Source of the DNA: Escherichia coli
GTDB taxonomy: Bacteria > Pseudomonadota > Gammaproteobacteria > Enterobacterales > Enterobacteriaceae
Length of the DNA stretch: 64,000 nucleotides
Assembly (NCBI RefSeq): GCF_030384885.1
Contig: NZ_CP128613.1
Direction: 5' to 3' (one strand)
This document shows positions 1,429 through 64,000 of this stretch, one piece after another (position 1 is the stretch's first letter; every line of letters starts with the position of its first letter). The translations under genes and the position numbers were made by a program. The notes beneath the pieces were generated by a model. The model did not search any database and had not been told where the DNA came from. It saw nothing but the letters and a program-made list of their open reading frames with translations.

Positions 1429-2853
<1,425 letters not shown>

Positions 2854-2856
2854 GGG

Positions 2857-3753
2857 TTATTCCTTGTCTAAAACCTGACGAATAAAGCCGCCGTGTTGAT
2901 CCAGGCGTTTTTTAGCTTCTGCGGCATCGAGATTTTTCAGCACCATCACAATGGCCGTTTTGCAGTTGCGCTCGCAGGCAATTAACGCCGCTTCCGCTTG
3001 TTCGGCGTTACATCCGGTGGCGTTTTTAACGATATTGACCTGGCGCACATGCAATTTTTCGTTGGTGGCGACCACATCGACCATCAGGTTGCCGAACACT
3101 TTGCCGGATTTAATCATCAGCCCGGTAGAGAGCATATTGAGCACCAGTTTCTGCGCTGTGCCTGCTTTCATTCGCGAAGAACCGGTAACCACTTCGGCAC
3201 CAACCACCGGAGTAATAGCAAACTCAGCGGTGGTTGAAACGGCGCTCCCCGGATTACAGGAAATGCCCACTGTGCGGCAACCGAGTTGGCGTGCGTATTC
3301 CAGCCCGGCAATCACATACGGAGTGCGACCACTGGCAGCAATACCAACCACCACATCCTGTGCGGTTAAGCCGATATTTTTTAGATCGTTAACGCCACCT
3401 TCCCGGCTATCTTCTGCGCCTTCCACCGCGTGCTGAATGGCATATTCACCGCCAGCAATCAAACCAACCACCAGGCCCGGTTTGACGCCGTAGGTCGGCG
3501 GACATTCGCTGGCATCAAGAATACCCAGACGACCGGAAGTCCCCGCACCGATGTAAATCAGTCGACCGCCGCCGCTTACCTGGGCGTGGATAACATCGAT
3601 CGCTGCGGCGATATCCGGCAGTACACGCTCAACGGCGAGTGGTACGGTTTTATCTTCATCGTTGATAATCCGGCACATTTCCAGCGTTGATACGCGGTCA
3701 ATTTCAGCCGAAGCGGCGTTCGAGCCTTCGGTAATCATCTTTTCAAGTTGCAT
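2857..3753 (-). CDS. murQ: N-acetylmuramic acid 6-phosphate etherase
   Basis: 298-aa SIS-domain ORF recognised as MurQ; upstream of murP. Confidence 0.9.
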
Positions 3754-52625: not shown

Positions 52626-52767
52626 AGAAAGTTATCCTGAGAATGGCTCACTGAGAACCTACGATGTTATGGCTGTATTTACATTTAATTAATCAGTATT
52701 TACATCGATATAATAAATGACATCTCTTTGTGGTATATAAGAATAGTTCTCTGCGACAGGAAGCATA

Positions 52768-52785
52768 TTCCTACAATTGTAAGAC
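52768..52785. promoter_or_regulatory. EvgA-box-like 18-bp inverted repeat upstream of yfdX
   Basis: TTCCTACA-AT-TGTAAGAC; resembles the TTCYTACA..TGTARGAA EvgA box as I recall it. Confidence 0.5.
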
Positions 52786-52805: not shown

Positions 52806-52823
52806 TAACTACAACTGTAAGAT
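52806..52823. promoter_or_regulatory. Second, weaker EvgA-box-like repeat upstream of yfdX
   Basis: TAACTACA-AC-TGTAAGAT. Confidence 0.4.
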
Positions 52824-59352: not shown

Positions 59353-62300
59353 TTAGTCATTTTGTTGACAGAAAACCGCAATCTCCTGGTCTAACTCTGC
59401 AATGTGTTCTTTAACAGAGTTCAGCAACTTAAGAATTTCAGGCTTGCTGTCATCTGAAACGGGCGTTATTTCTAACTGGTGGCTAAGATTAATCAACTTT
59501 TGCAAATTCAGGATGTTAGCCGCACCGTGGATGCGATGAATACACTGATGGAAAGTTCTGTTATCGCCAGCTTCTAACGCATGAAACGCAGCGGGTAGAT
59601 CTTTATGCGTTTCATGCTGGAAAGTCATGAGAATCTCCTGCATCAGTTGTAGATCGTTCGCCGTATTATTTTTCAGGGCCTCGATATCAAGGTGGCGATA
59701 CTGAGGTGCAATATGCGCAACCTGGTGTAACTGACTTAAATGTGTTTTCAGTACATCCAGGGTTAACGGTTTGAACAAACATAAGTTCATGCCGCAATTT
59801 AACCCTTTGTCGCGTTCATTAGCCTGTGCGTTGGCCGTAAGCCCCCAGACGGGTAAAGAATAATGTTGCTCACGGAGTTTGCGGGTCAACTCAAAACCAT
59901 CCATATTCGGCATATTAACGTCAGTAATAAACAGATCATAATGCTGCATACTGACTTTGTGTAGCGCCTGTACACCATCAGAGGCTTCATCAACATCATA
60001 CCCTAATAGGTTTAGCTGGCGTTTGAGTAAAAGTCTGTTTGTCGGATGATCATCCGCGATTAATATGTTTAATTTTTCAGGCAGTGTGACGGGTTGTTCT
60101 GGTTTTGCCTCGACAGTCGCCACTTGCTGGGTAATTTCTACCGGGATTGTGATTGTAAAAGTCGTTCCTATGCCGGGATGACTTTCTAATGACAAATCGC
60201 CCTGCATGTTTTTGATTAATTCTTTGCAGATCATGAGGCCTAAACCAGAACCTGTTTGCTGACGACCTGCTGTTGTTTGGCTATAGCGTTTAAACAGTTG
60301 TTGTTGTTCTTCCTGCGATAATCCGCTTCCGGTGTCCATAATCGTCATTTTGATAACAGCGTGGTAGTCATCAATATGAACCAGGGAAGTCGTAATTTTT
60401 ACTGCCCCCTCGGTGGTAAATTTAAGGGCATTACTCAGTAAATTAGACAGCACCTGCTTAAATGCTTGAGGGTCGATTTTAACCAGGTAGCGTTCAGGAA
60501 GCGTACTGCTGCAATTTAATGCGATGGATTTGCTTGCAGCAATCGCACCGAAAGAATGACAAGTGTTCTGGACTAAAGCAGGGATATCGACCCATTGTGG
60601 TTGAAGTTGATAGTTACCCGATTCAATTTTGTCGACATCAAGGATTTCACCAATTAAGCCGAGGAGCGACTGTCCGGTGGCGTAAGCAAGTGAAATCGCC
60701 TCCACACGTTGCTCCTTGCTAAGACCTGAACCCGACAGAAGTTCCAGGAAGCCCATAATGGAGCTTATTGGTGTTCTTATTTCGTGACTCATTGTTGCCA
60801 GGAACTGGCTTTTTGCGACAGTTGCATTGATAGCTTTATTTCTTTCTACTTCGAGTGCATGAATTAAATCACGCGTCTCGGTAATATCTTGCCAACCACA
60901 AATATATACTGCATTGTCACTTGCAGGTAAATTGCATAATGTATGCCAATGATTAATGCATCTTTTTTCAATACCATTATTAATTTCAAAAACTTGGCTA
61001 TATATTGTTCTGTTTTCTTTTGTTTCTGCTGTGACTTCATGCACATTAGAAAAAACATCTTTAAAGGGGGAGTCACTGTTTTCTAATGGTAACATTGCAT
61101 TTTTGTAGTAATCAGCAGTGAAATAATGTTCAAATGCACTATTGTGACTAATGACATTACCTTGCCAGTTTACAACATAAGTTGGATTCGGTAAGGAATC
61201 CGAGAGTGCTTTCCGGAATGATATTTGGTTTTCTAAATCACCCTGAATTACCTTACGACGACGAACTGAGCGTAACAGGTAGAATCCCCATAAAAGGCTA
61301 CTGCCAACTAATAAAACGGATAAAGTCGTAACAATGTAAAATTGCTCACTATAGAGGTCCCATGTGTCAATGGTCACATTGGGCATTTTGATCCATTTTT
61401 CCGTCAGGCGCAGAACTTCGCTTGGGGGAATTGCATTCAATGCTTTATTAATAATATCCTTAAGTTCTGGTTCTCCGCGAGGAAAAGCGAACGAAAGCGA
61501 TGCATTCTCAACGCCGGGAATAAGAAAATGATAAAGCTCATTAGGATAGTAATGGTCGATCATGTAACGCGAATTTAGCTGTGTCGCGACCAGGGCATCA
61601 AGTTCACCTTCCTTAACCTTGTGAAATGCAGCGCTAGCATTATCGACTTGTATCCACTCAACCTCCGGATACATCTCTTTCAATTGCGAATGAAGCTCAT
61701 AATAATATGGAATGGCAACTTTCATTCCTTTTTTTAAAGTTTGTTCACTATCAGGCGCTTTTTGCATGACGAAAACGTAAGGCGTTGTTATGAATGCTTC
61801 AGCAAATAAAACATTATTTTCTCGATCTTCACTATAAATAGCACCAGGTAAGATATCCCATCCATCGGGATTAAGCTGTGTTCCGGCATGGATATTGTGT
61901 GAAACGGTGATCGGAGAAAATTTTAAACCTGTTTGCAATGTAATAATATTAAGAATATCCCCCATAACGCCCCGAACCGAGCCATTTTCATCAGTCATAG
62001 AATAGGGGGGCGAGTAAGGATTTTCCAGCACCCTTAATTCGGGATGCTGCTTAATCCACAGTTTTTCATGTTCAGTGAGTTCTAATGGTTTGTTCAGAAA
62101 GGCCAGGTTCCCTGTATCAAGCCAATTTTGTGATACTTCATAGCGAACTTCATTTGTTAAAGCATCGACAAATCGATTGAGTACTTCATTAAGAACAACT
62201 GATTCTTTTCTGGTTAAGAAGAAATTATATTGGCGCGGTGTACTATAATAATTTACTACATTTAAGGAGTGAGTAAAATATCGGGAAATCATACTACTGG

Positions 62301-62946
62301 TAATGATGTTACTACCCATAAAGTAATCATTATGTCCGGTAGAAACGGATGCCAATGCCTGATATAAATTTGTAAAAGAGATAATTGTTGCTTTGGGAAA
62401 TGATTGGTGAATTACCTCGTCGGGGGGGTAATTTGCTACTCGCGCAATATTCACTGGTTTCGGCGAGGTTAGCGGTCGCATTGAATCGTGGAGGGTGGTG
62501 ACCAGCGCCGGAAAGGTAATTATCAATGGTTTGGTTGCAGCAATGTCCTCATTAACAGGCGGCGAAGCAACTAAATGTGATAACACGATATCGACTTCAC
62601 CTTCTTCCAGCGCGTCCATTGCTTTTTGATGATTAGGGTATTCCCGGAGTGTTAATTTGATATTTAATGCTTTTTTTAAAAGATTTAAATAATCAGCATT
62701 AATACCACGAACCCGTTGCTGCGAATCGGTATGCAATAATGTCGCTGTTTTTGACTTGTGTACTGCAATCACAAGATTTTTTTTGCTTGCCAGCCAACGC
62801 AACTCCTTGTTGCTCAGACGCAGTGGATCAAGTGTGACACGATTGTTACTACTGATGCCACGATATTCAATGTAATCTTCGTCTGCGAAACTTATAGTCG
62901 ACCAAAGACAACAAGAGAGAAGAAAAAAATAGGTTAAAAACTTCAT
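59353..62946 (-). CDS. evgS: Hybrid sensor histidine kinase EvgS
   Basis: Track ORF trimmed to MKFLTYFFLLSCCLW... giving 1197 aa; two periplasmic binding-protein domains, HisKA, HATPase, receiver and HPt domains. Confidence 0.9.
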   Translation of the reverse strand: MKFLTYFFLLSCCLWSTISFADEDYIEYRGISSNNRVTLDPLRLSNKELRWLASKKNLVIAVHKSKTATLLHTDSQQRVRGINADYLNLLKKALNIKLTLREYPNHQKAMDALEEGEVDIVLSHLVASPPVNEDIAATKPLIITFPALVTTLHDSMRPLTSPKPVNIARVANYPPDEVIHQSFPKATIISFTNLYQALASVSTGHNDYFMGSNIITSSMISRYFTHSLNVVNYYSTPRQYNFFLTRKESVVLNEVLNRFVDALTNEVRYEVSQNWLDTGNLAFLNKPLELTEHEKLWIKQHPELRVLENPYSPPYSMTDENGSVRGVMGDILNIITLQTGLKFSPITVSHNIHAGTQLNPDGWDILPGAIYSEDRENNVLFAEAFITTPYVFVMQKAPDSEQTLKKGMKVAIPYYYELHSQLKEMYPEVEWIQVDNASAAFHKVKEGELDALVATQLNSRYMIDHYYPNELYHFLIPGVENASLSFAFPRGEPELKDIINKALNAIPPSEVLRLTEKWIKMPNVTIDTWDLYSEQFYIVTTLSVLLVGSSLLWGFYLLRSVRRRKVIQGDLENQISFRKALSDSLPNPTYVVNWQGNVISHNSAFEHYFTADYYKNAMLPLENSDSPFKDVFSNVHEVTAETKENRTIYSQVFEINNGIEKRCINHWHTLCNLPASDNAVYICGWQDITETRDLIHALEVERNKAINATVAKSQFLATMSHEIRTPISSIMGFLELLSGSGLSKEQRVEAISLAYATGQSLLGLIGEILDVDKIESGNYQLQPQWVDIPALVQNTCHSFGAIAASKSIALNCSSTLPERYLVKIDPQAFKQVLSNLLSNALKFTTEGAVKITTSLVHIDDYHAVIKMTIMDTGSGLSQEEQQQLFKRYSQTTAGRQQTGSGLGLMICKELIKNMQGDLSLESHPGIGTTFTITIPVEITQQVATVEAKPEQPVTLPEKLNILIADDHPTNRLLLKRQLNLLGYDVDEASDGVQALHKVSMQHYDLFITDVNMPNMDGFELTRKLREQHYSLPVWGLTANAQANERDKGLNCGMNLCLFKPLTLDVLKTHLSQLHQVAHIAPQYRHLDIEALKNNTANDLQLMQEILMTFQHETHKDLPAAFHALEAGDNRTFHQCIHRIHGAANILNLQKLINLSHQLEITPVSDDSKPEILKLLNSVKEHIAELDQEIAVFCQQND

Positions 62947-62950
62947 GTGG

Positions 62951-63565
62951 TTAGCCGATTTTGTTACGTTGCGCAAATGTGTAAAGATCCATCAGTGATT
63001 TACATTCTAATTTTTCCATCAGGCGACTTTTATAAGTGCTGACAGTTTTGTTGCTGATGAACATTTTCTCGGCAATGTCATTGTTATCTTTGCCATCGAG
63101 GATATAGCGCATGACACTAATTTCTTGTTTCGATAAGGAGTCGAGTTTTTGCTGGTCGGACGTTAAACTTCCAACAAATCGATTGAGAGAGAAGGGGAAA
63201 TAGCAGTAGCCATTTTTTGCTGCTTCAATAGCCGCAATGATATTGTTCATGCCCTCTTTTTTACTGACGAATCCATTAGCGCCAGCATCAGCACAATGTT
63301 TCCCGTAAAAATGGTCATTTTTAGCGGAGACGATAATAATAATTCCGCTATATTGGCGCTTCCTCAGTGTTTCTAACACCTGGATACCGTTAACTCCGGG
63401 GATATCGACGTCAATGATGACGATATCAGGCTTAAGTGTTTCCACCCGTTGAACGGCGCTTCCGCCTTCAGTCAACTCGGCTAAGATTTCAATATCGTTT
63501 TTGATCAATAAATTACGAATTGCTGCGATAGCAAGAGGATGGTCATCAATAATTATTGCATTCAT
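62951..63565 (-). CDS. evgA: NarL/FixJ-family response regulator EvgA
   Basis: 204-aa ORF MNAIIIDDHPLAIAAIRNLL... with receiver domain and LuxR-type HTH. Confidence 0.9.
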   Translation of the reverse strand: MNAIIIDDHPLAIAAIRNLLIKNDIEILAELTEGGSAVQRVETLKPDIVIIDVDIPGVNGIQVLETLRKRQYSGIIIIVSAKNDHFYGKHCADAGANGFVSKKEGMNNIIAAIEAAKNGYCYFPFSLNRFVGSLTSDQQKLDSLSKQEISVMRYILDGKDNNDIAEKMFISNKTVSTYKSRLMEKLECKSLMDLYTFAQRNKIG

Positions 63566-63789
63566 AGATTATTCCCTTTGCAATGAAGCATCTCCCTTCT
63601 CCCTGTAGTAATACAGACATAAGGCATCATCTCATTTTCTCAATAAAAATAAGAAAATTTGCGCTTCCTTTAAGATAATTCGGTAAGTATACCATATAAA
63701 TAGTCAGCATAAATAAAATGTCAACAATAAATTCAGGGATAATACCGCTAACTTATAGTTTCAAATGATTACTATAAGGCTTCTCATTA

Positions 63790-63807
63790 ATCCTACAGGC
63801 GTAAGAA
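63790..63807. promoter_or_regulatory. EvgA-box-like inverted repeat in the evgA-emrK divergent promoter region
   Basis: ATCCTACA-GG-CGTAAGAA. Confidence 0.45.
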
Positions 63808-63980
63808 TTGTATTGCAAAAGTCACGGTTCAGTCCTCTGTTGTATCTTCTGCAACTCCTTTAAATTAGGCCTCCAACGTTCCTGGGATAATGTGTAACAC
63901 ATGCACTGTGTTTGATATGAAGAATGAATACTCTTTTCATTCAATTCATAAATTTCATCTATGCGAAATGAGAGATAATA

Positions 63981-64000
63981 GTGGAACAGATTAATTCAAA
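63981..64000 (+). CDS. emrK: First codons of a multidrug efflux membrane-fusion protein gene, truncated by the window end
   Basis: gtg gaa cag att aat tca reads (M)EQINS, consistent with my memory of the EmrK N-terminus; divergent from evgA. Confidence 0.35.

Follow-up and report, generated by a model that had tools for sequence, protein, structure and literature searches.

The closest described counterpart of the site considered here is the EvgA box of Escherichia coli K-12, located between the divergently arranged evgA and emrK genes. Direct binding of EvgA to the emrKY promoter is stated in two papers (PMC9496106, PMC8350985), and the emrK promoter is described as "directly regulated by EvgA" and as responding to EvgS1, a constitutively active variant, with induction (PMC5706723). 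In Shigella, an emrK-gfp reporter is silent when evgA is deleted (PMC6393483). All four papers cite Kato et al. 2000. An EvgA site is present at all directly regulated genes (PMC4283999), and EvgA-bound inverted repeats are marked before yfdX and yfdWUVE (PMC3720670). A printed box or consensus string was not found in literal text searches of the accessible literature. The comparisons below use TTCYTACA-N2-TGTARGAA (TTCYTACANNTGTARGAA), which we take to be the EvgA-box consensus and which reportedly goes back to Masuda and Church 2003. Checked empirically, it recovers sites upstream of safA, ydeP, yegR, yfdX and frc.

Two other systems are of interest for comparison. EvgAS is similar to the BvgAS system of Bordetella (PMC9496106, PMC10295115). 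There too, a NarL/FixJ-family regulator, BvgA, binds inverted heptad-like repeats, both ahead of its own operon and upstream of virulence or efflux genes. BvgAS is a paralogous phosphorelay and the source of the EvgAS name. Bvg promoters carry multiple cooperative low-affinity sites that extend toward the -35 element, whereas the evgA-emrK gap has a single 18-bp box; the sequence of the half-sites differs as well. The second system is RcsB, whose box (TAAGAATATTCCTA) has hexamer half-sites that resemble the TTCCTA and TAAGAA of the EvgA box, and whose DNA-binding domain belongs to the same GerE-type family. The half-sites of the RcsB box are, however, everted relative to those of the EvgA box.

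The window, meaning the whole 64,000-nucleotide stretch of DNA that was analysed, matches the chromosome of E. coli 2013C-4282 at 100% identity; this strain was isolated from human stool, and its RefSeq annotation supplied the gene coordinates (Table 1). The evgA-emrK gap of the window is a divergent intergenic region of 415 bp (63566-63980), bounded by both start codons, with a G+C content of 33% compared to 50% for the whole window. Within this gap, ATCCTACAGGCGTAAGAA is found at exactly 63790-63807. It forms an 18-bp imperfect inverted repeat, ATCCTACA-GG-CGTAAGAA, 174 bp from the start codon of emrK and 225 bp from that of evgA. The first-pass annotation had reported an EvgA-box-like site here, between the divergent evgA and emrK starts, and both the exact sequence and the annotated gene starts bear this out. 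All 18 bases are identical in the K-12 gap, as is the arrangement of the genes, and nothing at the site itself differs from K-12; the surrounding gap, in contrast, is an outlier haplotype that is 92.5% identical to its K-12 counterpart. The site very probably corresponds to the canonical EvgA operator already described between the divergent emrKY and evgAS operons. EvgA is a NarL/FixJ-family response regulator: it contains the Pfam domains Response_reg and GerE (a receiver domain and a GerE/LuxR-type helix-turn-helix) and is a full-length match to the PDB EvgA entries 5f64 and 8zwn (E about 1e-132). Its RefSeq accession, WP_000991370.1, is common to the source strain and K-12.

Table 1. Features of the evgA-emrK region and sister EvgA boxes, in window coordinates
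Feature	Position	Strand	Basis and remarks
EvgA box	63790..63807	.	Sequence, consensus match, matrix rank, conservation
Conserved flank TTGTATTGCAAAAG adjoining the box	63808..63821	+	Holds a putative weak -35, TTGCAA, 63813-63818
Putative emrK -10-like hexamer, TCTGTT	63836..63841	+	Predicted transcription start near 63848
emrK start, GTG, VEQINS...	63981..64000	+	RefSeq annotation and translation; window end cuts the gene off
evgA, ATG at 63565	62951..63565	-	RefSeq; Pfam domains; PDB matches
evgA sigma-70-type core promoter	63697..63724	-	-35 TTGACA 63724-63719; -10 TATTTA 63702-63697
evgL leader ORF, MLHCKGNNL	63562..63591	-	Sequence; stop codon overlaps evgA ATG
evgS	59353-62946	-	RefSeq annotation; ends at 59353
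Sister EvgA box upstream of frc, TTCTTACAGTTGTAAGAA	53798..53815	.	Consensus scan; 0 mismatches
Two sister EvgA boxes upstream of yfdX	52768-52785 and 52806-52823	.	Consensus scan; 1 mismatch and 3 mismatches, the latter promoter-proximal

The box agrees with the consensus at 14 of the 16 specified positions, the mismatches falling at positions 1 and 11. In Markov-1 simulations, matches with at most two mismatches are expected by chance 0.055 times per 64 kb, and at the gap's own base composition about 0.001 are expected in its 415 bp. The window contains three matches at this threshold and four with at most three mismatches, compared to 0.46 expected for the latter; none of 100 shuffles gave four. 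Each of the four is in the promoter region of a gene regulated by EvgA, and those other than the emrK site are found only upstream of yfdX and frc. In K-12 MG1655, the consensus gives one site each upstream of safA, ydeP and yegR, which we take to be under direct EvgA control. These three K-12 sites alone, none of which is present in the window, were used to build a symmetrised weight matrix. A motif scan with an EvgA matrix had been suggested as a check on the original call, and with this matrix the evgA-emrK site scores 18.4 bits and ranks second among the roughly 64,000 window positions; the four best matches are the sites at frc and emrK and the two at yfdX. Neither the consensus scan nor the matrix scan finds a second box-like site in the gap.

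The third codon positions of evgA are 89.8% identical to those of K-12. The box itself is within the best-conserved block of the gap, inside 35 bp (63787-63821) with zero differences from K-12. Of 5,426 complete E. coli genomes, 5,397 contain a match to a 34-bp query that spans the box, with exact matches in 4,889 records; both of the one-mismatch records that were inspected carry a G to T change at box position 9, in the unspecified spacer. A scan of species-representative genomes with EvgA recovers the divergent emrK-evgA arrangement in two more lineages. The first, L005, is a divergent lineage of Escherichia in which EvgA is 98% identical and the gap 85% identical, and its box, TTCCTACAGGTGTAAGAA, is a perfect consensus match. 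The second, Yersinia vastinensis, was unexpected; there EvgA is 94% identical and the gap 70% identical, and the box, TGCCTACACGTGTAAGAA, has one mismatch. The cores CCTACA and GTAAGAA are unchanged in E. coli, L005 and Y. vastinensis, and box positions 3-8 and 12-18 are invariant across them. The positions that vary are 9 (the spacer), 1 and 11 (each a T, as in the consensus, in L005 and Y. vastinensis) and 2 (in Y. vastinensis only). The longest run without any change in an alignment of the gap from four lineages is GTAAGAATTGTATT (63801-63814). An Rfam scan of the gap gave no match, and no known RNA element therefore explains the conservation.

A comparison of promoters suggests how the box may be used. 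Six EvgA-dependent promoters (emrK, safA, ydeP, yegR, frc and, at yfdX, the one next to the proximal box) were aligned on the box and oriented to the regulated gene. Counting after the box, CA occurs at offsets 9-10 and TC at offsets 26-27 in all six, and a TATTT-like, T-rich hexamer at offsets 29-34 is common to the aligned promoters, a spacing pattern that was recognised post hoc. The shared elements may be the end of a weak -35, an extended -10 position and a weak -10. Within the K-12 EvgA regulon (emrKY/evgAS, ydeP, safA-ydeO, yegR, yfdX, frc), the same core-promoter spacing is present at safA, ydeP, yegR and frc. The emrK promoter would accordingly be laid out as TTGCAA, a 17-bp spacer and TCTGTT, with a start near 63848 and the box centred at about -49.5. 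The proposed -10, TCTGTT, is very weak, without the conserved A at position 2; as TCTRTT, the element is kept in K-12, L005 and Y. vastinensis. A generic scan for sigma-70 promoters and terminators gave no sites in 63500-64000, and an activator-dependent emrK promoter fits this result. TATCTT (63843-63848) was also considered as the emrK -10 and was rejected, because K-12 reads TTTTTT at these positions.

In the mechanism proposed here, the 18-bp inverted repeat would be the operator of phosphorylated EvgA. Binding of a dimer to an inverted repeat is the norm in this family, and an EvgA dimer would presumably contact TCCTACA and GTAAGAA, two half-sites that mirror each other imperfectly. The box would abut the -35 position of the weak emrK promoter, and EvgA bound there could recruit RNA polymerase, so that emrKY would be switched on when EvgS senses mild acidity. 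That the box is the EvgA operator of emrKY, acting in this manner, is very probable. The first-pass annotation had proposed activation of the efflux operon by EvgA, and this part of it holds: the consensus, the matrix, conservation and geometry, along with the published evgA-dependence, leave emrK activation well supported.

Autoregulation, which that annotation had attributed to the same site, is on weaker ground. A 124-nt K-12 5'UTR construct, one of those in two papers on CsrA, implies an evgA start at 63689 (PMC11052181 supplement), for which a TTGACA/TATTTA promoter is correctly placed. A second, sigma-S start lies near 63679-63680, as derived from the -114 leader in PMC11210196; the sigma-S promoter is credited to Tanabe 1998. 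The centre of the box is located at -109.5 with respect to the first start and at about -119 with respect to the second, and in the box-aligned comparison the shared EvgA-promoter elements are absent in the evgA direction. Positive autoregulation of evgAS was reported by Tanabe 1998 and others, as cited in PMC11210196. However, reporters often show no induction of evgA under inducing conditions (PMC11210196, PMC6393483), and in macrophages emrK is induced while evgA expression is unchanged (PMC6393483). The box would be the only candidate operator for the reported autoregulation. With the box 110-120 bp upstream of the evgA starts, any effect on evgA would have to come from a remote position or through an unmapped promoter. 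Of the dual role first proposed, emrK activation thus stands, while the autoregulatory half is the weaker, with older reports and an awkward geometry behind it. The leader ORF evgL is described as a target of CsrA, with its translation coupled to that of evgA (PMC11210196). In the window its 9 codons are intact, and the TGA that ends them overlaps the ATG of evgA.

The source strain keeps the canonical EvgA-to-emrKY wiring despite an outlier evgS and intergenic haplotype. This wiring couples acid sensing to an efflux pump that is important for deoxycholate resistance and for Shigella survival inside macrophages. There is no new biology in the site. The gain is modest, and consists of a comparative footprint of tolerated box positions, a probable regulon-wide box centre near -49.5, and a clearer statement that the autoregulatory leg depends on weak geometry.

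A perfect 8-bp inverted repeat with an 11-nt gap, CTTATAGT ... ACTATAAG, is also present in this region (63752-63778), between the EvgA box and the evgA -35. Its half-sites TTATAGT/ACTAT are kept in K-12, in L005 and largely in Y. vastinensis, and its spacer varies. Each arm contains TATAGT, a -10-like hexamer, on opposite strands. We know of no regulator assigned to the palindrome TTATAGT-N13-ACTATAA. It may be that the EvgA box serves emrK only and that evgA is controlled via this palindrome, or that the palindrome represents the back-to-back TATAGT -10s of unmapped divergent promoters. We regard this as unlikely; if true, either version would revise the textbook "EvgA autoregulation" loop.

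It is very unlikely that the box exists mainly for autoregulation of evgAS, with emrK activation secondary or achieved through another site. The autoregulation credited to Tanabe 1998 and others in PMC11210196 would favour this improbable arrangement, as would the finding that in six of six EvgA-homologue loci the best matrix match lies just upstream of the evgA homologue, including in Hafnia, where the neighbouring gene encodes a permease and not EmrK. Against it are the distances from the evgA starts given above, with the shared spacing seen toward emrK and absent toward evgA, and the frequent failure of evgA transcription to respond to inducing conditions to which emrK responds. The gap has no second box-like site, and the matches at distant homologue loci score only 12-14, near the window background of 13.0.

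A further possibility is that the repeat is bound by another GerE/LuxR-family regulator, such as RcsB, acting alone or as a heterodimer with EvgA, so that EvgA would be insufficient. RcsB is a structural relative of EvgA, and TTCCTA and TAAGAA are similar to the half-sites of its box. But no match to the RcsB box with three or fewer mismatches is found in 63566-63980, matches to it are not enriched in the window as a whole (7 versus 3.7 expected), and the orientation of the half-sites is opposite. Direct binding is, moreover, attributed to EvgA in the literature (PMC9496106, PMC8350985, PMC5706723). Involvement of RcsB or a similar protein at this site would be very surprising. Finally, a functionless chance resemblance in AT-rich intergenic DNA, as might be suspected from the two mismatches and the low G+C content of the gap, is effectively refuted by the very small number of such sites expected there, the second rank by an independently built matrix, and consensus-respecting substitutions across lineages whose gaps are as low as 70% identical.

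Several smaller observations concern the sister boxes and the surrounding sequence. The two yfdX boxes are 38 bp apart, start to start, and the regulon spacing to the CTCTCTGATT core-promoter element is present only at the weaker, proximal box (three mismatches); this element is common to yfdX and frc. An RcsB-box-like sequence, GAAGCATATTCCTA (two mismatches, 52760-52773), overlaps the distal yfdX EvgA box via its TTCCTA half-site. Within the emrK leader region, a 40-aa minus-strand ORF (63822-63944) is taken as a mechanical ORF.

The outlier evgS-evgA-emrK haplotype is rare: the gap is at least 99% identical in 4 of 5,418 E. coli records and 90-95% identical in 5,396. The RefSeq protein accession of EvgS also differs between the source strain and K-12, and natural EvgS variation is known to alter acid responsiveness (PMC5706723). 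EvgS/EvgA have been described as confined to E. coli and Shigella (PMC9496106). The complete divergent emrK-evgA locus of Y. vastinensis IP38594, at 1449-3615 of a 590-kb contig, looks like a case of horizontal transfer; its gap lacks a 29-bp stretch in which the evgA transcription starts of K-12 lie. The first 114 EvgA residues are also encoded, at 100% identity, by a 398-bp contig labelled Rhizobium cauense; that assembly is almost certainly contaminated with E. coli DNA.

More distant EvgA homologues, 66-71% identical, are found in Hafnia, Klebsiella, an Enterobacter MAG and Buttiauxella. In these four loci, the best whole-locus matrix match is located 70-420 bp upstream of the gene encoding the homologue, with scores of 12-14 bits that are, as noted, close to background. 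Although not significant alone, these matches hint at an operator that was present ancestrally in front of the regulator gene. The sequence TTCCTACAGCTGTCATCC is identical in Klebsiella and Buttiauxella. The gene divergent from the evgA homologue encodes an HlyD/EmrK-like protein in Enterobacter and an amino-acid permease in Hafnia.
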